From a virus (lineage: Duplodnaviria; Heunggongvirae; Uroviricota; Caudoviricetes), in IMG/VR virus record IMGVR_UViG_2565956616_000008: DNA of 37,425 nt; one strand, given 5' to 3'. A program made the position numbers and the translations under genes. The notes beneath the pieces were generated by a model. It worked only from the letters and a program-made list of their open reading frames with translations, was not told the origin of the DNA and searched no databases. Positions 1-11,225 of the stretch are shown here, one piece after another (position 1 is the first letter of the stretch; each line of letters opens with the position of its first letter).

Positions 1-993
1 CTAATCGATGGACAGTTTATGGACACTTTCAGCCAGCGGATTAAAGTTGATCGCGTCCTGTAAGAAGTCCGGCGAAAAATGAGCGTACGTCATTGTTTGC
101 TGAATCGTTGCGTGCCCCAGGATTCGTTGCAACGTAACAATATTTCCGCCATTCATCATAAAGTGTGTGGCAAATGTATGACGCATGACATGCGTAGCCT
201 GCCCCTTCGGCAAATCCGGTTTCACCTCCTGAAGAATCTCCCGGAACTTCAGATAATCAACCTGATACAATAACCCCGTTCGACGGGTTTTAATCAGAGG
301 CACGACCGAATCCGCCACAGGAACCGAACGGGATTTTCCGTTTTTGGTGTTAAAGAACGTCACCCGGTTGCCAACGATATGCTCTCCACGTAGTTCCGAT
401 GCTTCACTCCATCGGGCACCAGTAGAAAGACACAGAATGGCAACACGACGCGCATCACCCTCCAGTCGCTCAAGAAGCCGTTCAATCTCATCATCAGAAA
501 GAAAGGCCATCTCTGTGTTCTGAACTTTCAGTTTTCGTATACCGCGTACAGGGTTCGCGTTGTGAAAGACCTCAGCTTCAATCAGCACCGTGAACATGGT
601 AGACAGTACGCATAAGTCACGATTAATACTGGACGGCATTAATCCGGCCTGTAATTTCTCTGACCGATATTCAAGCATAAATTTTCGCGTCATCTGACTG
701 GCGCGAGGATCTCCCATTTCACGAACAACCTTCCCTAGCCTAACCCTGTAGCTATCCCCGTAAGCCTGATTACGCCCATCAAGCATCCACCACGCATCAA
801 GCAGCTCTGATAATCGCCGCTGATCAGCTGGCTTAGCCTGCCATGGCTTGTCATGAAAGTTCTGTAACACATACTTCTCAAACTCCTGAGCCTTTGATTT
901 CAGGGCAAAGATTTTTCGAATCCGCTTTCCTTCCGCCCCCTGCGGTCTGACATCGACCTGATAACGTCCGTCTTTGAGTTGCTTAATCGACAT
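1..993 (-). CDS. int: P2-type tyrosine integrase
   Basis: ORF 1..1008 minus; N-terminus (MSIKQLKDGRYQVDVRP...) and C-terminal region (HxxRHTFATHF...LGH...Y) match P2 Int as recalled; ATG at 993 preceded by GGAGGGG; track start at 1008 is a TTG. Stop codon is the first three bases of the window. Confidence 0.9.
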   Translation of the reverse strand: MSIKQLKDGRYQVDVRPQGAEGKRIRKIFALKSKAQEFEKYVLQNFHDKPWQAKPADQRRLSELLDAWWMLDGRNQAYGDSYRVRLGKVVREMGDPRASQMTRKFMLEYRSEKLQAGLMPSSINRDLCVLSTMFTVLIEAEVFHNANPVRGIRKLKVQNTEMAFLSDDEIERLLERLEGDARRVAILCLSTGARWSEASELRGEHIVGNRVTFFNTKNGKSRSVPVADSVVPLIKTRRTGLLYQVDYLKFREILQEVKPDLPKGQATHVMRHTFATHFMMNGGNIVTLQRILGHATIQQTMTYAHFSPDFLQDAINFNPLAESVHKLSID

Positions 994-1062
994 GATTAGC
1001 CCCTCCAACGGATAAATTAACTAAACACTCCTTGCGATATGTAATTCGCTCAATGTGTAGAG

Positions 1063-1404
1063 TCAGCCAACATTGCGGCCTGATCGGGGTGATTTTTGGG
1101 TAATACCGATTGAAACCTGATCGCCCTCCGACTGAATAGAGCCATCAAGAGAGAGAGCCGGGGCAACCTGCCCGGCAGCGGGAAATGTTTTGTCGTGAAG
1201 TATCCACATAGTGTATTTTTCGAATCGCTCGACTTGGATTACTTTTTCTACAACCTCAATTCGCGCAGGTTTATATCCAGACTCATAATTCCCTATAGTC
1301 CCTACAGAAACCCCCGTTACTTGCGAAAACTGAGATTGTGTAAGTTTTTCTGCATTTCTGATCGCCTTTAGTTTTTTGGCGTAATCTCTTGACATGTTCA
1401 CCAT
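1063..1404 (-). CDS. C: P2 C-type immunity repressor (HTH)
   Basis: 113 aa; YESG, KYTMW and GQVAPAL motifs resemble P2 repressor C as recalled; position next to int, divergent from early operon; AGAGGA upstream of the ATG at 1404. Confidence 0.8.
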   Translation of the reverse strand: MVNMSRDYAKKLKAIRNAEKLTQSQFSQVTGVSVGTIGNYESGYKPARIEVVEKVIQVERFEKYTMWILHDKTFPAAGQVAPALSLDGSIQSEGDQVSIGITQKSPRSGRNVG

Positions 1405-1428
1405 ACGATGAGTATCCTCTTTTCATTC

Positions 1429-1507: not shown

Positions 1508-2029
1508 ATGCGGGACTTCATTGCCGATAAAGAGTTATCTGACCACCAACCACTTCAGGAAAGTGACACACTCAGCGGATCCATTGATGCCGCCAACGAC
1601 GACGAACACGAAGAAAACAAGAAAAAGCGTTCCTACAAAAAAGGAGCGACTTTACGGCTGGATGGTCCGATCGCCGGGCTTTGCTCTCTGGAAAAAGGCG
1701 CGGCATATATTGGGCTAACAAAATCTGCACTGCGCGTAGCCATTCATCGCGGTCAAATGCCGGGACACAAGACGCGCACAAACCCGGAAGATGAAAACTC
1801 AGACGGAGTATGGTGGTTTAACGCCAAAGAGTGGGACAAGTTGGCTGATGAGCTACCAGAGCACGAGCCCCCAGAATGGCACAACTGGAAAAGTTACTGG
1901 ACGTATGACCGCCAGAAAAGGAAGTTCTCTCCAGCTAATAAAGAAGACTGCCAGACCATTAACGGTAAGCGAGTTTATACAGGCAGAAGCTCAAAACTGA
2001 ACCAACTCAGAAACAACAGAGGCAACTAA
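1508..2029 (+). CDS. Cox/excisionase-like DNA-binding protein with N- and C-terminal extensions
   Basis: 173 aa; central segment AAYIGLTKSALRVAIHRGQMPG...VWWFNAKEW resembles the P2 Cox / AlpA-type HTH; first gene of the early operon; AAGAGG 7 nt before ATG. Confidence 0.6.
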   Translation: MRDFIADKELSDHQPLQESDTLSGSIDAANDDEHEENKKKRSYKKGATLRLDGPIAGLCSLEKGAAYIGLTKSALRVAIHRGQMPGHKTRTNPEDENSDGVWWFNAKEWDKLADELPEHEPPEWHNWKSYWTYDRQKRKFSPANKEDCQTINGKRVYTGRSSKLNQLRNNRGN

Positions 2030-2033
2030 TCGT

Positions 2034-2456
2034 ATGAAAACAAACACGTCAGATTTCACAATAACTATTTCAAAAAATGACCAAGCATTAATTGATAACC
2101 TGAAATACCTTGCGGAAAAACATAATAACGGACGAATTGCAATTAATTTACGACACATCACAGGAGTAACAATTGTAACCAGTTACTGGCATCTATATCT
2201 AATCGCTAAATCAGTACTGGAAAACAAAGATTCTGTTGTCAATGGAAGAGATATAGATACTCTTCCTGCACAAATCAAACCGATAGCCTATCAATTGCGT
2301 AATCGTTTTAAAAATGAAGGTGGGATTATATTTGACTTTCCCGCAGCTGTAGCCGTGAGCTTCTCTCGGGAGGATATACTTCACTCATTTCGTTTTGCTC
2401 TATCAGGTGACGAGACATTATGGCAGCTAGAAGATGCCGGGAGCAGCCCGGCATAA
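2034..2456 (+). CDS. hypothetical protein (AT-rich cargo-like gene)
   Basis: 140-aa ORF in a locally AT-rich segment; no recognisable motif. Confidence 0.5.
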   Translation: MKTNTSDFTITISKNDQALIDNLKYLAEKHNNGRIAINLRHITGVTIVTSYWHLYLIAKSVLENKDSVVNGRDIDTLPAQIKPIAYQLRNRFKNEGGIIFDFPAAVAVSFSREDILHSFRFALSGDETLWQLEDAGSSPA

Positions 2457-2462
2457 ATCAAA

Positions 2463-2654
2463 TTAAAAATCAACCAGTTGTGTGACAGGTGGGTATTTAC
2501 GCTGAATTTTGTCAGTTACTAACGCCAGTAATATATGAATCTCTGCGTTTAATGCGTCTTTATCACCCGTCGTTTTTACCCTAGGAGGGTTAATGTTATC
2601 CAGAGCAGCACTAAGGTCACTCAACAAATTAACAACTTTTTTATCTTCTGACAT
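2463..2654 (-). CDS. hypothetical small protein, convergent with the preceding gene
   Basis: 63-aa ORF on the minus strand in the same AT-rich segment. Confidence 0.35.
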   Translation of the reverse strand: MSEDKKVVNLLSDLSAALDNINPPRVKTTGDKDALNAEIHILLALVTDKIQRKYPPVTQLVDF

Positions 2655-2789
2655 GAAAACCTCTAAACAATTTAATTAAACATAAGCCAGGACCTGAACC
2701 GGCCAGTCCAAGTCCTAGACACACAAAAAATACCACAAATCAATACAAGGTGACACGAGTACACCTTACCGAAGGTACAGAGTTTTAAT

Positions 2790-3140
2790 ATGAAACTACA
2801 GCGCAATTCTTCACAGCCGCGCTTCCGCAACGGTGCGGAACGCCACGCTAACCGTTTCGCTACCAGTGCATCACGTAGCAACTCTCGCTACAGCCTGAGC
2901 GAAACACACGCAACGCCGGATGGCTACCCAGTAAAACAAATCGGCGAGCATACCTGGCTGATTGAGAAAGCTGGAATTGTGGTCCACAAATGCCCACGCA
3001 ATCCGTTTACCGGAAACCGCATTTTTGCATTGAGCTGTGGCGACAATCAGTTTGGGCAGGATTTCACATTATACGAAGCACTTCGCACGGTTGATCGTCT
3101 GCTTCGCGGGCAAAGTTTTATTAAACAGGCTGATTTATAA
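2790..3140 (+). CDS. hypothetical early-region protein
   Basis: 116-aa ORF in the plus-strand early operon. Confidence 0.55.
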   Translation: MKLQRNSSQPRFRNGAERHANRFATSASRSNSRYSLSETHATPDGYPVKQIGEHTWLIEKAGIVVHKCPRNPFTGNRIFALSCGDNQFGQDFTLYEALRTVDRLLRGQSFIKQADL

Positions 3141-3150
3141 CGGGTGCTTT

Positions 3151-3438
3151 ATGACCAAAGACCATGCACAAGGTGTATTTATCCGTTTTATTGATTTTCG
3201 CGGTGAACTGTTATTACGTGCATCCGCTATTGACGGAGTGACTCCGGCGGGTAAAAACGGAGCCGACGAAGCCACTTACGTTTATCTGAACGGCACGCGA
3301 CTGCTTGTGGAACTTCCGTACCAGACCGTACGAGAAATCATTAGCGAAGCTGAAAAGGCACGCCAAGTTAATGGCGATGAACCCTATATCGAAATTATTT
3401 GTATGGATTCAGAAGCTGAAATACAGAAAGCAGATTAA
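3151..3438 (+). CDS. hypothetical early-region protein
   Basis: Track ORF 3037..3438 overlaps the previous gene; first ATG after its stop is at 3151, in the same frame. Confidence 0.5.
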   Translation: MTKDHAQGVFIRFIDFRGELLLRASAIDGVTPAGKNGADEATYVYLNGTRLLVELPYQTVREIISEAEKARQVNGDEPYIEIICMDSEAEIQKAD

Positions 3439-3895: not shown

Positions 3896-4306
3896 ATGCA
3901 CGCAAAAGAAGAAGGTATCATCAGAGCACTGAAAGAAATTTCAAAGACAGAAAACGAAGTAGCGAAAAAAGCCATAGCAAATAATCATATGGACGTCGCA
4001 ACCCACACACTGATAGTCGCAAGAGTCACGGCAGAAGCAGCCGAAATTATCGCAAAACAGGATGCTGAACTGGCGGTTCTCAGAACACAACCAGTCACCG
4101 GACTGGATTTGTCTAACACCGGACGCCTTATTTACACAATTGGCTCGGAGCTACAGCGATACACCATTATCGCCGGGTTACAGGATAAATACCTGATCAC
4201 TCCTCACCCCATAAGGGAATCAGAAATTCTGACAAATCTCCGCCTGATAGAGCGCTCTCAAGTCGCATTCATTGATGACGCACAGTGCACCGTATTTAAC
4301 GCATAG
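3896..4306 (+). CDS. hypothetical early-region protein
   Basis: 136-aa ORF; GGAG 9 nt upstream of ATG. Confidence 0.55.
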   Translation: MHAKEEGIIRALKEISKTENEVAKKAIANNHMDVATHTLIVARVTAEAAEIIAKQDAELAVLRTQPVTGLDLSNTGRLIYTIGSELQRYTIIAGLQDKYLITPHPIRESEILTNLRLIERSQVAFIDDAQCTVFNA

Positions 4307-4329
4307 AGTTACTGGACAAAGGGGGCGCA

Positions 4330-4533
4330 ATGGCAATTAAGCATTTTCCCGTCGTTCGCTTTACCTCCAGAGGGCGCGAATACGAGGTCGACGAACGCCT
4401 GATTACCACTATCGACAAACATCGTTCGGAAAAGGATGCACACCACATCTACCTCACTGACGGCACTTACTTCTGCGCCACTAATGTGGCGCGGGTAAAC
4501 CTTATCCGACAGGTACAGGAGCCACGCAGATGA
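4330..4533 (+). CDS. hypothetical protein
   Basis: 67-aa ORF; AAAGGGGG upstream; stop overlaps next start. Confidence 0.5.
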   Translation: MAIKHFPVVRFTSRGREYEVDERLITTIDKHRSEKDAHHIYLTDGTYFCATNVARVNLIRQVQEPRR

Positions 4534-4796
4534 CCATTCTGGACTACATCGCTACTCATCCGGGGTGTAGCGGCGGAGAGATCGCCGCAGCACTGAATAC
4601 TCCAACCACAGCCATTAATGCTGAGTTACGCCAACTTTGGCGCGGCGGCTTAGTCATCAGAACAAACCGCAGCACAGGTGGTCGCGCTCGCAAAACTGGA
4701 GGCCAGGCTTCTTACCACGTAAACCCGATGCCGTTCGGGTGTAGCAATCCACTTACTCACATGTTTAACCAGCTACTGAAGGAAGCCAGAACATGA
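4530..4796 (+). CDS. hypothetical protein, possible winged-helix DNA-binding fold
   Basis: 88-aa ORF, translationally coupled (ATGA overlaps at both ends). Confidence 0.5.
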   Translation: MTILDYIATHPGCSGGEIAAALNTPTTAINAELRQLWRGGLVIRTNRSTGGRARKTGGQASYHVNPMPFGCSNPLTHMFNQLLKEART

Positions 4797-5092
4797 GCAC
4801 CATCAACCACCAGAAGCTACGCGAACTGGCATTTGCCCTGCAACGAATGGCAACACCTCAAAAATTACTGGCATTTCGCGCAATGCTCTCGCCGTCTGCT
4901 GTGCTGGCACTGCTGGATGAGCTGGAGCACGCCAGAACCATGGCTCCAGCCATTCGCCTGACGCTCCATCATGAAATCGCTGATTTCTGCGCACCACTGG
5001 GTTCGCCTGGTGAACCAGAAACGCCGGAAACAATGCAACGAGAGCTACTGCAACGCATCGACAAGGTTTTTGATTTTTTCCTTAACCAGTAA
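4793..5092 (+). CDS. hypothetical protein
   Basis: 99-aa ORF, coupled to the upstream gene. Confidence 0.5.
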   Translation: MSTINHQKLRELAFALQRMATPQKLLAFRAMLSPSAVLALLDELEHARTMAPAIRLTLHHEIADFCAPLGSPGEPETPETMQRELLQRIDKVFDFFLNQ

Positions 5093-5103
5093 AGGACCGC
5101 GAT

Positions 5104-5316
5104 ATGAACAAAAAGACCTGGTTTCGCGCATACATGTGGGCGCTGGTATGCGTCCTCGTTTCTCTCATTCTGTATGTGGGGCTACTTCCCAGAATGATTT
5201 CATCAGACAGCTCCTTCCTGGTATTGCTGGGCATTTTTGTCGCCTTGCTGTACCCGGCGGGCGTTGTTCGCTTTTTCAGTAACTACATCAAAGCAATTAT
5301 GGAAACCAAACAATGA
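5104..5316 (+). CDS. small inner-membrane protein (two predicted TM helices)
   Basis: 70 aa, two hydrophobic stretches; stop overlaps the start of the SPFH gene. Confidence 0.55.
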   Translation: MNKKTWFRAYMWALVCVLVSLILYVGLLPRMISSDSSFLVLLGIFVALLYPAGVVRFFSNYIKAIMETKQ

Positions 5317-6137
5317 AAAAACTATTACCACTCATCCCTCTCCTGATGACCACACTTCTGGTTGGCTGTGACCGCGTGGAGCCGGGCAATGTAGGCATCA
5401 AAGTCAACAAACTGGGCGACGATAAAGGCGTCGGTGAAGTAGTTGGCGTTGGCCGCTACTGGACAGGCTGGAATACAGAGGTTTACATCTTCCCGACTTT
5501 CAAACAAATGAAGACTTACGATGAGCCGTTCAACTTCCAGATGAGTGACGGCACAACCATCGGCTATCACATCGGCGTGGCCTACAAAGTTGATCCATCC
5601 AAAGTTACCACTGTGTTTCAGACCTACCGCAAAGGCGTGGATGACATTACCGACACTGACCTGCGCCAGAAGATCGCCGATGCACTCAACCGACTGGCCA
5701 GCAAAATGACCACCGATAAGTTTATCGACGGTGGCAAGTCTGAACTGCTGGATTCAGCACTTAAAGACATTCAGTCAGAAATGACACCTATCGGCATTCA
5801 GGTCATGAGCCTCTCTTATGTCGGTAAACCGGAATATCCGCCAACCGTTATCGACAGCATTAACGCCAAAGTCACGGCAAACCAGAAAACCCTGCAACGC
5901 GAACAGGAAGTCAAGCAACGCGAAGCAGAAGCCAACATGTTGCGCGCAGAAGCTGCCGGACAGGCTGATGCCATTCGCACAAAAGCCCAGGCTGAAGCCG
6001 ACGCCATTCGTTTACGCGGTGAAGCTCTGCGCCAGAATCCCGGCGTTATGGAGCTGGAAGCAATCAACAAATGGAACGGCACGCTGCCGCAATACATGAC
6101 CAGCAACACCGCTGTTCCGTTTGTTCCGGTGAAGTAA
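5313..6137 (+). CDS. SPFH/band-7 (HflK/C, stomatin-like) domain lipoprotein
   Basis: 274 aa; signal peptide with lipobox LLVGC; SPFH-like core followed by an Ala/Glu/Arg-rich coiled-coil tail, the usual SPFH architecture. Confidence 0.75.
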   Translation: MKKLLPLIPLLMTTLLVGCDRVEPGNVGIKVNKLGDDKGVGEVVGVGRYWTGWNTEVYIFPTFKQMKTYDEPFNFQMSDGTTIGYHIGVAYKVDPSKVTTVFQTYRKGVDDITDTDLRQKIADALNRLASKMTTDKFIDGGKSELLDSALKDIQSEMTPIGIQVMSLSYVGKPEYPPTVIDSINAKVTANQKTLQREQEVKQREAEANMLRAEAAGQADAIRTKAQAEADAIRLRGEALRQNPGVMELEAINKWNGTLPQYMTSNTAVPFVPVK

Positions 6138-6142
6138 TTAAA

Positions 6143-6190
6143 CCCGGCCAGTGAAAATCGCTGGCCGGAGCAGTATCAGGATTTTTTTTA
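6143..6190 (+). terminator. putative terminator after the SPFH gene
   Basis: Stem CCGGCCAG/CTGGCCGG followed after a spacer by a run of 8 T. Confidence 0.5.
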
Positions 6191-6306
6191 GTATGCCGTT
6201 CTCACAAAAAAACCGCTTGCCATGCCGCAATCAGTCAGGTTACATTTCCGCTGCACCTCATAAAACGGGTGCCGGGTTTCGCAGCCTGCTGACAACCAAA
6301 GCGCAC

Positions 6307-6327
6307 AACCGCGCCAGCGGTTTTTTT
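6307..6327 (+). terminator. rho-independent terminator-like hairpin
   Basis: AACCGC-gcca-GCGGTT stem-loop followed by a 7-T run. Confidence 0.55.
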
Positions 6328-6368
6328 GTGCGTACTGTATTGCCACGTCTTTTTCGCACACGAATTAT

Positions 6369-6444
6369 GGCGGGGCGTACGGGGCCGACTTCGGTCGGGC
6401 CGGGTTCTTTGGTTGCCGGTACTGCGAACCCCGTACGTCTCGCC
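6369..6444 (+). promoter_or_regulatory. Long-stem structured element in the leader of the gene at 6507
   Basis: 6369..6384 pairs with 6429..6444 as a 16-bp stem with two G-T (G-U in RNA) pairs; inside, GCCGAC-TTCG-GTCGG(G)C hairpin with a UUCG tetraloop; possible sigma70-like promoter TTGCCA-17-AATTAT at 6340..6368. Confidence 0.45.
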
Positions 6445-6506
6445 ACCCACAGTTTCGCAGCTCTGGATAGTGAGTTTTCAAAACTTACAACCAAAGAGGC
6501 CACACC

Positions 6507-6737
6507 ATGGCAAACCGCAAACAGCACCGCGCTATCGCGGAGCGTCGTCACATCCAGACTGAAATCAACCGCAGACTTTTCCGCGCATTCCGCGTCGCGC
6601 ATATCATGCACATCAATATGCTGCATGAACGCAGTCACGCACTATCGAACAGCTATTCCGCCTCTGTTTTCAGCTATCTGGCAGATGATCTGCGCGAGCT
6701 TCAAAAGCTCATCCAGCAGCAAAACAAACTCCATTAA
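6507..6737 (+). CDS. small arginine-rich protein
   Basis: 76 aa; AAAGAGG 7 nt upstream; N-terminus ANRKQHRAIAERRHIQTEINRR is arginine-rich. Confidence 0.55.
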   Translation: MANRKQHRAIAERRHIQTEINRRLFRAFRVAHIMHINMLHERSHALSNSYSASVFSYLADDLRELQKLIQQQNKLH

Positions 6738-7181: not shown

Positions 7182-10004
7182 ATGACGACAGAGTACATCA
7201 GGGACTGGCAACAACCGCGCCACGCAGTAGGGCGTGAAGGAACGGGGATCCCCGCTCCTGAATCCGTGCTTTCCTCCTGGCTGGATGCCTACCGGGCAGA
7301 GAACGAGCGCCGCCAGAAAATGGCTGATGCGGCGTTCTCCGCCACGCCGCTGGGCAACCTGATTAATAAAAGCCTGGACGCACAGGAAAAACAGGACAAA
7401 ACCATCGCACTGGCAGGAGACGCCAGAAAACAGGCACGCGGCGCGGTGGATGAAGCCATGGCCTCGCTGCGCCTGCTGCCGTCCTATCTGCGCGATCCGC
7501 TTATTCGCCACCTCTCCTTCCTGCGCAAAAAACAGGAAGCCGATCGCCGGAAAGGCAAAAAGAGCTGGCAGGCGGAACGCTATGCACGCGGAACCCTGCG
7601 CAAAATATTCGAACGTCTGGAGCGCACCGATCACCGCTGGCTGACACAGGGTTATCGCTCCCTTGCCGGACGCGAACGCCTGGACGATTTGCTTTACCTG
7701 CCGCAGCTCAACAAACACCAGATACAGACGCTGGCCACCATGACGGCGGCGATGTTCAGCAGCACCTTCGAAAAACTCTGCGATGGCTTTGGCGCGACCG
7801 ATGGCGAACTGACCATGGATGTAACGCTGAAGGCGTATCAGATGCTGGCCCGCATGGCGTTACACCTGCACATCATGCCTCCACATTATGACGCACTGAC
7901 AACAGATAAAGACCGGAGGAACGAACCGGACACGGAGCTGCTGCCGGGCGCAATCCTTCGCCTGACCTGTGCGGAATGGTGGAAACGCAAACTGTGGCTG
8001 TTACGTTGCGAGTGGAGAGAAGAACAACTCCGCGCCGCCTGTCTGGTTTCCAGAAAAACATCACCCTATCTGAGCCAGGACGCGTTAAGCGAGTTTCGCG
8101 CACAGAGCGAGAAAACACGCGATTTCCTGAAAAGTTTCATGCTGGAAAACGAAGACGGGTTCACGATTGATCTCGAGACAGTGTATTACGCGGGAGTAAG
8201 TAACCCGGTTCACCGTAAGGCAGAAATGATGGCCACCATGAAGGGGCTGGAACTTCTGGCCGAAGCCCGTGGCGACAAAGCGGTGTTTCTGACTGTCACC
8301 TGCCCGTCAAAATACCACGCCACAACAGAGAACGGTCATCCGAATCCCAAATGGAACGGGGCCACCATGCGCGACTCCAGCGATTACCTGGTTAACACGT
8401 TTTTTGCAGCGGTCCGCAAGAAACTGAACCGCGACGGCCTGCGCTGGTATGGCATCCGCACGGTGGAGCCTCACCATGACGGCACCGTGCACTGGCATAT
8501 GATGGTCTTTGCTCATCCGGAAGAAATCGACACCATTGTGTCCCACACCCGCGATATTGCCATTCAGGAAGATCGTCACGAGCTGGGTGATGATATTACC
8601 CCACGCTTTAAGGCGGAGTTCGTCGACGGCTCAAAAGGCACGCCAACCAGCTACATCGCCACCTACATCGGAAAGAACCTGGACAGCCGCGCCGTGGATG
8701 GCATCGACCCGAAAACGGGCAAGCCACGCGTTGACCACGAAACAGATAAATCAATGGCCGAGAGCGTGGAGCGCGCCATCGGCTGGGCGCGCCTTCACCG
8801 GGTCCGCCAGTTCCAGTTCTTTGGCATCCCCTCCCGTCAGGTGTGGCGTGAACTCCGCCGCCTTGCCAGCCAGATGGCACGCAACCCGGAAGGCCCGCAA
8901 CGGCTGAAGGATGACGCAATGGATGCGGTTCTTGCTGCCGCTGATGCCGGGTGTTTTGCCACCTACATTGAAAAACAGGGTGGCGTACTTGTTCCGCGCA
9001 AGGACTACCTGATTCGCACAGCCTACGACCTCGCAGATGAGCTTAACGATTACGGCGAACAGAGTGTACAGATTTACGGGATCTGGTCGCCATTCATCGG
9101 GGAATCCTCCCGTGTGTGCACGCATCCGGATAACTGGAAGCTGGTAAGACGTAAACCGGAAGCGGAGGACAGCACCCGCGAAAATGGTTTTGACCTTCAG
9201 GGCGGCCCTGCCGCCCCTTGGACTCGTGGCAATAACTGTCCCCGTGTACAGGAAACGGACAACAACGGGACAGAACAGCCGGAAGAACGGCCAGCACCGT
9301 GGCCGCAGCTCCCTGACGGCGTTGAAGTGAACGAATGGATGCGCTCACTGAAACGGCACGAACGCCGGGCGCTGATGCGTTCGCTTCGTGACAAACAGGC
9401 AAAAAACAGCAGTGATGAAATGCAGAGCTGGACACAGAGCCGCAAACAGCAGCGGCCTTTGCCTGATAACCACGAATTACTCGCTAAAGAATGGCGGGAG
9501 TCTGCTGAATCTCTCGGCCTGCATATTGGTGAACAGCAGATGCAGCACCTGTTACGGGGCGGCAGTCTGTACGTTGACGGCAGCATCATTGCACCGCAGG
9601 GATTTGAAATTGTACGCAAACCGGATACCCGTCCGGACAGCCGGATCACGCAGCTCTGGCAGCGCCTGAGCCGTAACCACGGCGTAAGCAGCACGGAGAT
9701 CCGCCATAACCCGGTCGCCAGCTATCTGGAACAGCTGGGGGCATCAGACCCCGAAGCCGCCGCACGCCTGGCATCCACACTTCAGCAGGACCAGAACACC
9801 ATGAAAACACCCGTTACCGTGCTTTCTGACATGCTGCGCGCCATCCGCGACGCAGAGCACGCACAGAGAATCAGTGAAACCACTGAACGCGCCCGCCGCA
9901 AAGCAGACCTGCTGCGGGGTGGCCTGACCAGTGGAAACAAAAAACAGACAGAAACGGGATTCACAAATCCCGTAAATGAGCAAAAAACGCGCCGCGATAT
10001 ATGA
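7182..10004 (+). CDS. A: Replication initiator (P2 gpA family rolling-circle endonuclease) with a C-terminal extension
   Basis: 940 aa; position after the early genes and overall similarity to the P2 A family as recalled (region around YIATYIGKNLD); longer than P2 A, which I recall as about 760 aa. Confidence 0.85.
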   Translation: MTTEYIRDWQQPRHAVGREGTGIPAPESVLSSWLDAYRAENERRQKMADAAFSATPLGNLINKSLDAQEKQDKTIALAGDARKQARGAVDEAMASLRLLPSYLRDPLIRHLSFLRKKQEADRRKGKKSWQAERYARGTLRKIFERLERTDHRWLTQGYRSLAGRERLDDLLYLPQLNKHQIQTLATMTAAMFSSTFEKLCDGFGATDGELTMDVTLKAYQMLARMALHLHIMPPHYDALTTDKDRRNEPDTELLPGAILRLTCAEWWKRKLWLLRCEWREEQLRAACLVSRKTSPYLSQDALSEFRAQSEKTRDFLKSFMLENEDGFTIDLETVYYAGVSNPVHRKAEMMATMKGLELLAEARGDKAVFLTVTCPSKYHATTENGHPNPKWNGATMRDSSDYLVNTFFAAVRKKLNRDGLRWYGIRTVEPHHDGTVHWHMMVFAHPEEIDTIVSHTRDIAIQEDRHELGDDITPRFKAEFVDGSKGTPTSYIATYIGKNLDSRAVDGIDPKTGKPRVDHETDKSMAESVERAIGWARLHRVRQFQFFGIPSRQVWRELRRLASQMARNPEGPQRLKDDAMDAVLAAADAGCFATYIEKQGGVLVPRKDYLIRTAYDLADELNDYGEQSVQIYGIWSPFIGESSRVCTHPDNWKLVRRKPEAEDSTRENGFDLQGGPAAPWTRGNNCPRVQETDNNGTEQPEERPAPWPQLPDGVEVNEWMRSLKRHERRALMRSLRDKQAKNSSDEMQSWTQSRKQQRPLPDNHELLAKEWRESAESLGLHIGEQQMQHLLRGGSLYVDGSIIAPQGFEIVRKPDTRPDSRITQLWQRLSRNHGVSSTEIRHNPVASYLEQLGASDPEAAARLASTLQQDQNTMKTPVTVLSDMLRAIRDAEHAQRISETTERARRKADLLRGGLTSGNKKQTETGFTNPVNEQKTRRDI

Positions 10005-10080: not shown

Positions 10081-10909
10081 ATGAAAATTTGTATCGATGA
10101 CGGCTCCACCAACATCAAGCTGGCATGGACTGAGAACGGCCCAGACGACCGACACGCAATACCAGTACAGCGATGTGAATGTCATTGCCATTCATCACGC
10201 GCTGGTCAAATCAGGCATCACGCCACAGGAGGTGGATGTGGTTGTCACCCTGCCACTGAGCGAGTATTTCGACACAAACGCACAGCCGGACATGACCAAC
10301 ATCAACCGCAAAAAAGCGAACGTTATGCGCCCGGTGGAGTACCAGAACGGCGAAGCATTCACTATCCGTAACGTACGGGTTATGCCTGAATCCATTCCGG
10401 CTGGCTTTAAGGCACTGGCTGACATGAGTCCGTTTGAATCCCTGCTGATTGTGGATTTGGGCGGAACCACGCTGGATGTGGCAAAGGTTCAGGGGCAACT
10501 GGCAGGTATCAGCTAGGTGTTTTGCGATCCACACGTAGGCGTTTCTCTGATGGCCGATGCCGTACTGTCGGTGATGGCCACTAACGGTATGCGCACCAGT
10601 CACCACATCGCCAATACCATTATCGAACATCGCCATGATGAAGCCTGGCTGCGCCAGCACATCCACAATGACGCGCATTACGCCAGCCTGATGGCGGTTA
10701 TTCGTGAAAAGGAAGAAACACTGAAACAACGCGTGATCCGCGCGCTGGCGGGTTTTTCGGGTTACGGGCGGGTGATGGTTGTCGGTGGAGGGGCGGAGAT
10801 TGTGGCACCCGCTATCCGCGAAGCCTGCGGAGTTAATGCGACTTTCATCGCGGACGGGGTGCCACAGTTTGCTCTGGTTAATGGGCTGTACGCAATGGAC
10901 AAGGAGTAA
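10081..10909 (+). pseudogene. ParM/StbA-like actin-type partition ATPase, disrupted by a frameshift and an in-frame TAG
   Basis: N-terminus MKICIDDGSTNIKL in frame 1 (10081..); body with LIVDLGGTTLDV in frame 2 (10097..10516); in-frame TAG at 10514..10516; C-terminus with VMVVGGGAEI continues in the same frame to 10909. Confidence 0.7.
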
Positions 10910-10913
10910 ACCA

Positions 10914-11225
10914 ATGACGACACCAACCAGACGGATAAGTTTCTATCTGAAGCCTGCGGCCGTCAAGAACGAAAGCGAAGCATGCGCCTGGCTGGACAGC
11001 CTTACACCAGAAGCCCGCAAAAGCGGCCAACGCGTGGCTTTTCTGGCCGGGCTGGCACTTCTGAAAATGAATCCGGCAGAGGCTTACCGACTGGCTGCAT
11101 GGGCTGACGATGAGGCGTTATCAGTGACACAAACCAGGACAGAATGCCCCGCGTCACAGCCAGTATCAACCGCACAGATAACCAGTCAGATGGCCGGAAA
11201 TATCCGGGCGTTATTTCCCGAATAA
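10914..11225 (+). CDS. ParR/StbB-like small partition protein (tentative)
   Basis: 103 aa; AAGGAG 7 nt before ATG; pattern RRISFYLKP...LDSL...AFLAGLALLK...LFPE resembles plasmid StbB as recalled; sits directly after the parM-like gene as in parMR loci. Confidence 0.5.
   Translation: MTTPTRRISFYLKPAAVKNESEACAWLDSLTPEARKSGQRVAFLAGLALLKMNPAEAYRLAAWADDEALSVTQTRTECPASQPVSTAQITSQMAGNIRALFPE

Follow-up and report, generated by a model that had tools for sequence, protein, structure and literature searches.

Why does a P2-like prophage carry, among its early genes, a tightly coupled pair of genes for membrane proteins, and why does the same pair recur in phages of very different kinds? The question is raised by IMG/VR virus record IMGVR_UViG_2565956616_000008, an E. 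coli prophage that belongs to the P2 family and is P88-like (genus Xuanwuvirus); its whole stretch of 37,425 nucleotides is called the window below. The first gene of the pair is an open reading frame (ORF) for a 70-residue protein, here called the partner (positions 5104-5316, + strand). The second encodes a 274-residue protein of the SPFH (stomatin/prohibitin/flotillin/HflK/C) family (5313-6137, + strand). Bases 5313-5316, ATGA, belong to both genes: the reading frame of the partner stops, and that of the SPFH protein starts, within them. A preliminary description made from the sequence alone had proposed a 70-residue two-helix membrane protein translationally coupled to a 274-residue lipoprotein; the ORFs, the ATGA overlap and the two hydrophobic segments of the partner confirm this gene-level account as real and correct. 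Our favoured explanation, which we hold about as strongly as we doubt it, is that the pair is an accessory membrane module of the early lytic operon, in which a periplasm-facing SPFH cage would stand on the inner membrane with the partner as its fence.

The evidence that carries this explanation begins with the conservation of the pairing. In each of the 80 IMG/VR loci retrieved with the SPFH protein, an ORF of the partner family lies on the same strand and runs up to the SPFH start codon. A profile hidden Markov model (HMM) built from seven partner sequences also matches in phiP27, SSU5, the P1-like RCS47, the N4-like Erwinia phage S6, 4MG, Burkholderia phi1026b and Stenotrophomonas phage Piffle, and it finds no match in two related loci without an SPFH gene. 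The phiP27 ORF (2193-2438 of locus L003) is unannotated. Overlap or abutment of the two genes recurs in other phages, with gaps of -16 to +9 nt; 4MG has one ORF between them. The pair spans P2-like, P1-like, SSU5-like, Stx/phiP27-like and virulent N4-like phages, and the SPFH gene is found in at least 626 phage records, temperate and virulent, from many families. Strictly virulent carriers of the module are N4-like phages, Vequintavirinae, Ounavirinae, Kuttervirus, Kayvirus and phiCbK. At the partner's position, a non-homologous small membrane ORF is found in Pseudomonas phage TL (one transmembrane (TM) helix), phiCbK (several) and Kayvirus (MbpV, one). The Salmonella Kuttervirus PhiSH19 has an unannotated two-helix ORF (1933-2137 of locus L098, - strand) filling the 205 nt that precede its SPFH lipoprotein gene; the annotated 'superinfection exclusion protein' of this phage was rejected as the partner, having no TM segment and not being the immediate neighbour.

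The small upstream ORF is under purifying selection, with a dN/dS of about 0.27 over 20 distinct P88-type alleles. Because of this value, and because phages of widely differing kinds have a homologue immediately before their SPFH gene, we regard the partner as a genuine coding gene and not a chance ORF. Its product has hydrophobic segments at about residues 9-27 and 38-58, with three Lys or Arg residues at the N-terminus and three at the C-terminus. The positive-inside rule places both termini in the cytoplasm, and from the basic ends on both sides an N-in/C-in topology is predicted, with the ten-residue loop between the helices on the periplasmic side. The motif of this loop is invariant among close homologues and is kept in the partners of P88, SSU5, 4MG, S6, RCS47, phiP27 and phi1026b despite overall identities of 21-47%. 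The partner matches PHROG 1130, 'membrane protein' (E 2e-21); no Pfam domain was matched, and its profile found no PDB sequence at E up to 10. Database searches reach a small family (15 proteins by word-indexed search and 15 among 50%-identity cluster representatives), probably because tiny ORFs are seldom called.

The second protein belongs firmly to the SPFH family. It matches Pfam Band_7/SPFH (PF01145) over residues 21-207 at E 5.8e-31 and 108.3 bits, far over the cutoff of 23.6, and PHROG 200, 'lipoprotein', at E 3.8e-111. An AlphaFold2 (AF2) monomer model, built from 28 homologues, has a mean predicted local distance difference test (pLDDT) score of 79.5. The alignment behind it was shallow because the homologues gathered, in two protein-database searches for diverse sequences, were mostly enterobacterial and at least 64% identical. 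In this model an alpha/beta domain (residues 18-175) leads into a single unbroken helix (177-241), beyond which the C-terminus is poorly ordered. Foldseek searches of the PDB returned HflC, erlin-1/2, prohibitin-1/2, HflK, stomatin, flotillin and QmcA (E 1e-13 to 3e-8), with a probability of 1.00 for HflC, erlin, prohibitin, stomatin and flotillin. A profile of ten phage SPFH proteins placed prohibitin 1/2 first among PDB sequences (E 1e-10, near full length), followed by HflC (1.5e-8), HflK, QmcA and erlin. Judging from the model, the 65-residue helix would correspond to the wall helix of SPFH cages. The SPFH core, the lipoprotein signal and the long C-terminal helix that had been read from the sequence beforehand are all borne out by PF01145, an L-V-G-C lipobox and the AF2 helix. 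The family-specific motif near the C-terminus, in which K253, W254, G256 and P259 are invariant in the ten-phage alignment, lies in a region of low pLDDT, as would be expected if it becomes ordered only in an oligomer. Copies in phiP27 and Stx phages, whose partner ORF is unannotated, and in phi1026b are labelled 'serine protease'. We reject this label, Band_7 being the sole detectable domain, and read the name as a carry-over from 'membrane protease subunit' labels.

The membrane site of the SPFH protein is suggested by its N-terminus, MKKLLPLIPLLMTTLLVGC followed by Asp20. Its n-region is basic and is followed by a hydrophobic core and then by the lipobox L16-V17-G18-C19, with the Asp at position +2. 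Under the pattern [LVI][ASTVI][GAS]C, applied to homologues of at least 240 residues, 122 carry a lipobox and 15 do not; the Cys is invariant in ten diverse phage homologues. Of these 122, 103 have Asp at +2, 11 have Tyr and 2 have Trp; the Cys precedes D-R in 100. In E. coli, Asp at +2 is a Lol-avoidance signal that retains lipoproteins in the inner membrane. An abundant subgroup of homologues, from SSU5-like phage-plasmids, carries an aromatic residue (Tyr, Trp or Phe) where the lipobox Cys would stand (G-Y-D-R-V-E-P; for example 2297-3331 of locus L099) and keeps a 66-residue partner immediately upstream. Going by their sequences, these would be non-lipoproteins held by an uncleaved N-terminal helix, in agreement with an inner-membrane, periplasm-facing site.

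The two proteins differ in how they vary between phages. Between P88-like, P1-like and phiP27/Stx-like phages, identity is 96-99% over the mature SPFH part, but 87%, 47% and 25%, respectively, over the partner and 39-56% over the signal peptide. The DNA is homologous to the copies of Stx phages from about 5359-5374, at the lipobox, onward. This mosaic boundary may stem from recombination or, alternatively, from a partner that co-evolves with the anchor. A 347-residue in-frame fusion of partner and SPFH protein (P0001) occurs in two independent assemblies (4001-5044 of locus L015 and 64-1107 of locus L016). We downgraded it as Rosetta-stone evidence, since an RCS47-type pair would yield this sequence if a frameshift fell in its short overlap, and the fusion may be neutral or defective. 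In L015, a gene with a Tad2-like (anti-Thoeris) domain lies about 700 bp downstream of it.

Table 1. Features of the pair and its surroundings in the window.
Feature	Positions	Strand	Basis or remark
Partner gene, 70-residue inner-membrane protein	5104-5316	+	ORF, hydrophobic segments, PHROG 1130, dN/dS
Inter-helix loop LPRMISSDSS, predicted periplasmic	5185-5214	+	carries P-x-[ML]-[IV]-S-[SA]-x-[DS]
ATGA overlap	5313-5316	+	read from sequence; gives translational coupling
SPFH/Band-7 prelipoprotein gene, 274 residues	5313-6137	+	PF01145, PHROG 200, AF2, Foldseek, PDB-sequence profile
Lipoprotein signal peptide, lipobox and Asp at +2	5313-5372	+	Cys codon 5367-5369; Asp codon 5370-5372
SPFH (Band_7) domain, residues 21-207	5373-5933	+	Pfam envelope; AF2 strands and helices at pLDDT 81-95
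Single long helix (65 residues), residues 177-241	5841-6035	+	AF2; aligns with helical regions of HflC, HflK and QmcA
C-terminal motif K-W-N-G-x-L-P, then PF[VI]x[VI]K tail	6069-6089	+	family-specific
Strong stem-loop just past the SPFH stop, at the end of the cassette	6144-6168	+	RNA fold
Best sigma-70-like site, 10/12 consensus positions	1389-1418	+	between repressor gene and cox, Pe-like position
Integrase ORF	1-1008		identified by correspondence with P88 and UTI89 annotations
HTH repressor	1063-1404		
Cox	1508-2029		
gpA	7182-10004		

That the pair is prophage-encoded, as had been proposed, is upheld by the integrase, helix-turn-helix (HTH) repressor, Cox and gpA genes in the window (Table 1) and by the host serS at its right end. 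The window also holds tail genes, and in E. coli UTI89 dmsA flanks the integrase end of the prophage. DNA identity over the cassette region is 92.9% to P88, 99.2% to UTI89 and 100% to E. coli 89-3156. Between 4330 and 6137 each gene overlaps or adjoins the next, and a consensus scan of the + strand found no sigma-70-like site between 3503 and 6217, hence none before the pair. Because the upstream genes are contiguous and no promoter-like site lies in this interval, the pair is most likely carried on the early lytic transcript and shut off by the prophage repressor in the lysogen. The best-scoring site of the scan would then presumably drive the operon; searching by consensus is crude, and the sites are no more numerous than in shuffled sequence. 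The 65-nt stretch 6136-6200, which contains the hairpin after the SPFH gene, folds at -24.4 kcal/mol (z = -4.1 against shuffles). The U-run of this hairpin is displaced, 13 nt downstream, and a terminator scan therefore did not call it; the stem-loop may be a partial terminator or an RNA stabiliser.

The pair is an optional component of its phages. Seven other P88-like phage records match the flanks only, and their sequences diverge exactly past the stop codon of the ead/Ea22-like gene. What fills the slot differs: the SPFH pair in the window and in P88, an Ash-like 205-residue regulator in 705R2, and a D5-like HTH protein of 183 residues in Citrobacter phage Shae_phiSM. The flanking early genes (4330-5092, at least 80% coverage) occur in 1041 of 5426 complete E. 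coli genomes; 145 of these complete genomes hold the full pair and 393 any close SPFH homologue. The suggestion that the pair stands outside the core P2 gene set is thus substantiated by the flanks-only records, the other genes in the slot and the count of 145 against 1041 genomes, and its distribution across P2-like phages is patchy. Positions 5090-5104, right after the ead/Ea22-like stop, form a cargo-exchange point in P88-like phages.

Neither gene is new to the databases. Phage P88 has the same two genes at the same early-operon position, annotated as gp11 'membrane protein' and gp12 'lipoprotein' or 'putative SPFH domain protein'. The mature SPFH part is 99% and the partner 87% identical, nothing of substance differs, and the entries are annotation only. 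UTI89_RS04580 and UTI89_RS04575 are the same genes in the UTI89 prophage. Both families are already catalogued (PHROG 200, PHROG 1130, RefSeq 'SPFH domain-containing protein'), and their presence is not surprising. Our analysis contributes four points: unrelated phages strictly conserve the pairing, the loop carries a conserved motif, there is evidence of an inner-membrane, periplasm-facing site, and expression is probably early-lytic.

Among characterised systems, the closest profile match is prohibitin PHB1/PHB2 (PDB 8RRH, 9O9Z, 9UNL and 9URZ; E 1e-10 over nearly the full length). Prohibitin forms a cage, on the face of an energy-transducing membrane that is equivalent to the extracytoplasmic one, but it is a eukaryotic hetero-oligomer with TM anchors and no small partner, and its identity to the phage protein is about 13-16%. 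The E. coli HflK/HflC-FtsH cage (PDB 7VHP, 7VHQ, 7WI3 and 9CZ2) shares the SPFH fold, the long wall helix and the predicted periplasmic side (Foldseek E 1e-13, profile E 1.5e-8, identity 17%). HflK and HflC are a hetero-pair with N-terminal TM anchors, whereas the phage protein is the product of one gene, with a predicted lipid anchor and a dedicated two-helix partner outside the SPFH family. T4 Imm and Sp, T5 Llp and lambda CIII are small accessory proteins of the envelope or membrane that are made early. Imm, Sp and Llp are early-expressed exclusion proteins of the envelope. The analogy is one of timing and location only, with no relation in sequence or fold. Set against these systems, the pair would be a phage-specialised SPFH scaffold with a lipid anchor and a dedicated membrane partner that is not an NfeD protein.

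These findings can be joined in a single mechanism, whose structural core we judge to have roughly even chances. The partner would form a helical hairpin in the inner membrane, with both termini in the cytoplasm (N-in/C-in) and its short conserved loop on the periplasmic side. The SPFH protein would be exported, lipid-modified at Cys19 and kept on the periplasmic face of the inner membrane, where its SPFH domain may be faced by the partner's loop. The domain and the 65-residue helix would assemble into a closed homo-oligomeric ring or cage over a patch of the inner membrane. We expect a cage because the closest solved relatives (prohibitin, HflK/C, QmcA and erlin) all form closed rings or cages; PDB titles of relatives include 'membrane microdomain organization by SPFH family proteins' and 'FtsH-HflKC AAA protease complex'. 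The partner's helices may supply the fence of this microdomain within the membrane, a role we propose because the SPFH anchor is predicted to be a lipid, whereas canonical members contribute one N-terminal TM helix per subunit, and because a coupled two-helix protein is encoded alongside. The resting lysogen would not make the module; its synthesis would begin shortly after infection or induction, and the module would corral or shield a component of the inner membrane during lytic growth.

The nature of that component is a matter of lower probabilities. FtsH is the leading single candidate, though an unlikely one taken by itself. By analogy, it might be sequestered or modulated as by prohibitin and HflK/C, since proteases of the FtsH type are held by both of these nearest families of the same membrane sidedness, and nearly all bacterial hosts in question have FtsH. 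About equally likely is a role in blocking the entry of, or damage by, superinfecting phages during lytic growth. Such exclusion or membrane protection fits because of the presumed early expression, the envelope location, the patchy spread and the frequent horizontal exchange. A broader and similarly tentative idea is that of a two-component 'periplasmic cage' common to many phages, made early and insulating a patch of the inner membrane, which would shut out the DNA-entry machinery of rival phages or neutralise membrane-targeting abortive-infection effectors rather than regulate proteolysis.

Several points weigh against the cage explanation. Identity to the solved fold relatives is just 13-18%, and the cage is a reading carried over from them, the AF2 model being a monomer. 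The +2 residue is Glu in 4MG, Ser in TL and Piffle, and Asn in phiEa104, and lipoprotein sorting rules differ outside enterobacteria; retention in the inner membrane may therefore not extend to all remoter homologues. The small ORF upstream of the SPFH gene in phiEa104 has no TM helix, so a membrane partner is not strictly universal. Given the crudeness of the promoter scan, a weak internal promoter, and hence expression in the lysogen, is conceivable. The data single out no client, and none that can be named rises above a low probability. Our literature search found no functional study of any phage SPFH protein, and according to a phage paper of 2026, why phages have SPFH genes 'remains unclear'. 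The HflK/C-like PM0222, a prophage SPFH protein of Pasteurella multocida, is reported to be released in outer-membrane vesicles, to signal by way of TLR1/2 and to add to virulence in mice (PMC9872710).

Among the alternatives, the one that survives best, which was the main idea of the preliminary description and which we consider decidedly unlikely, would make the protein a mimic of HflK/C that displaces or competes with the host proteins at FtsH and so alters the stability of a CII-like regulator, its own or that of a superinfecting phage, tuning the decision between lysis and lysogeny. In its favour, the solved families that come nearest with the same sidedness, prohibitin and HflK/C, regulate FtsH-type proteases; the pair sits in the early operon, and in phiP27 in a gene block running into xis and int. 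Lambda has an FtsH inhibitor, CIII, among the lysogeny functions that it encodes (PMC1838920), and a like suggestion concerning FtsH and lysis-lysogeny has been published for Pseudomonas phages, where obligately virulent carriers were also noted (PMC8540360). However, many carriers of the module are obligately virulent and have no lysogeny decision to make, so that control of that decision is unlikely to be the conserved role. Nor did the designation 'HflK/C paralogue' in the preliminary description hold. Orthology was rejected, as the protein falls more than 100 bits below both equivalog cutoffs (HflC TIGR01932, 26.4 bits against 134.4; HflK TIGR01933, 22.6 against 159.4), and a single SPFH gene, its product predicted to be lipid-anchored, stands in place of a TM-anchored K/C pair. 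Pfam and PHROG profiles identified no CII- or CIII-like gene in the early operon, and the conserved two-helix partner would be left unexplained.

An improbable alternative moves the activity into the resting prophage, where the pair would be a lysogenic-conversion moron acting at the envelope in superinfection exclusion or anti-phage defence. The cassette is indeed patchy and horizontally exchanged, with mature SPFH parts almost unchanged across P2-like, P1-like and Stx/phiP27-like phages. Its products are envelope proteins, the PHROG class of the partner is 'moron, auxiliary metabolic gene and host takeover', and a stem-loop follows the cassette. Exclusion from the lysogen is nevertheless disfavoured because no promoter-like site precedes the pair, which is contiguous with the upstream early genes. 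Neither protein matches any defence model in PADLOC-DB v2 at E up to 0.1, the alternative cargo of the slot consists of regulators (Ash-like, D5-like HTH) and not of defence genes, and virulent carriers have no lysogen to protect.

Just as doubtful is a role in lysis or envelope secretion, in which an SPFH microdomain would organise or delay a holin, spanin or secreted lysin and thereby set the timing of lysis. This idea draws on Kayvirus (Staphylococcus phages K, G1 and P4W), in which a small membrane gene, mbpV, likewise abuts an SPFH gene, mbpS, within the lysis module between lysK and tgl; the authors called MbpV holin-like and speculated that MbpS may aid Sec-dependent export of Tgl (PMC7150955). 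The comparison carries over poorly: this is a virulent Gram-positive phage, MbpS is TM-anchored and 24-26% identical to the SPFH protein, and MbpV has one TM helix and is not detectably homologous to the partner. Kayvirus alone has the pair inside the lysis module. In SSU5, 4MG, phiEa104, S6 and TL the pair is surrounded by genes of recombination, replication or nucleotide metabolism, not lysis; that it sits among such genes in virulent phages also speaks for the early module. The pair of the window lies about 14 kb from the region of the P2-like late morphogenesis and lysis genes, whose position we take to be as in P2.

A virulence factor acting on the animal host, released in vesicles as a lipoprotein with the phage as its vehicle, is very improbable. 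The precedent would be PM0222 (PMC9872710), a possible relative of the phage family, and the cassette is present in uropathogenic UTI89 and in Stx phages. Against this, any triacylated lipoprotein activates TLR2, which renders the PM0222 finding non-specific, virulent phages from the environment, with hosts such as Erwinia, Caulobacter and Stenotrophomonas, often carry the module, and the predicted early lytic expression and inner-membrane sorting signal point elsewhere.

A canonical NfeD-SPFH operon of bacterial origin, with the partner as a short NfeD protein binding the SPFH C-terminus as YbbJ does in QmcA, is hardly tenable: the resemblance that the preliminary description saw holds for the gene layout, a small membrane gene adjacent and co-directional with the SPFH gene as in QmcA-YbbJ (PDB 8Z5G; QmcA is among the fold and sequence matches, at a fold E of 3e-8), and fails for the partner, which we rejected as an NfeD protein since PF01957 matched neither it (E up to 0.1) nor nine other phage partners (E up to 0.05), no PDB sequence matched, and 70 residues with two TM helices leave at most about 15 soluble residues, too few for the NfeD OB-fold, while the orientations would also be opposite, QmcA facing the cytoplasm and the phage protein carrying an export signal.

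The cage explanation, if correct, bears on a wider problem. SPFH proteins are now known to build closed cages over membrane patches. The cassette offers a compact and tractable E. coli example of about 1 kb, optional, present in UTI89 and P88, and with a defined partner. Identification of its client would explain a recurrent accessory function of phages and how a lipid-anchored SPFH cage closes in the membrane. Were the client FtsH, the module would represent a second phage strategy over that protease, beside lambda CIII; were exclusion or counter-defence true, it would be a new mechanism at the level of the envelope; and an insulating periplasmic cage would constitute a new mechanistic class of phage envelope device.

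Other features of the early region were recorded alongside the pair. Downstream of the cassette, isrK RNA (6253-6327, 65.9 bits) and a C4 antisense RNA (6363-6450, 87.1 bits) are both significant in Rfam, and sigma-70-like sites at 6217-6246 and 6340-6368 precede them, respectively. They are followed by an ORF for a 76-residue 'derepression protein' (6507-6737, + strand), which scores 25.4 bits against PF25738, slightly under the cutoff of 27. Together, 6217-6737 resembles a C4/antirepressor module of the P1 immI type within the P2-like early region, just upstream of orf121 and gpA. A ParM-like plasmid-segregation gene after gpA (about 10081-11040, + strand) has a 131-bp internal deletion relative to UTI89 and is frameshifted and split into several short ORFs. 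Just past cox, the stretch 1900-2800 is low in GC (35-41% against about 50-58% around it). It contains an ORF for a 140-residue protein (2034-2456) that has no Pfam or PADLOC match and a long minus-strand hairpin (2718-2687), and it may be a separate moron.

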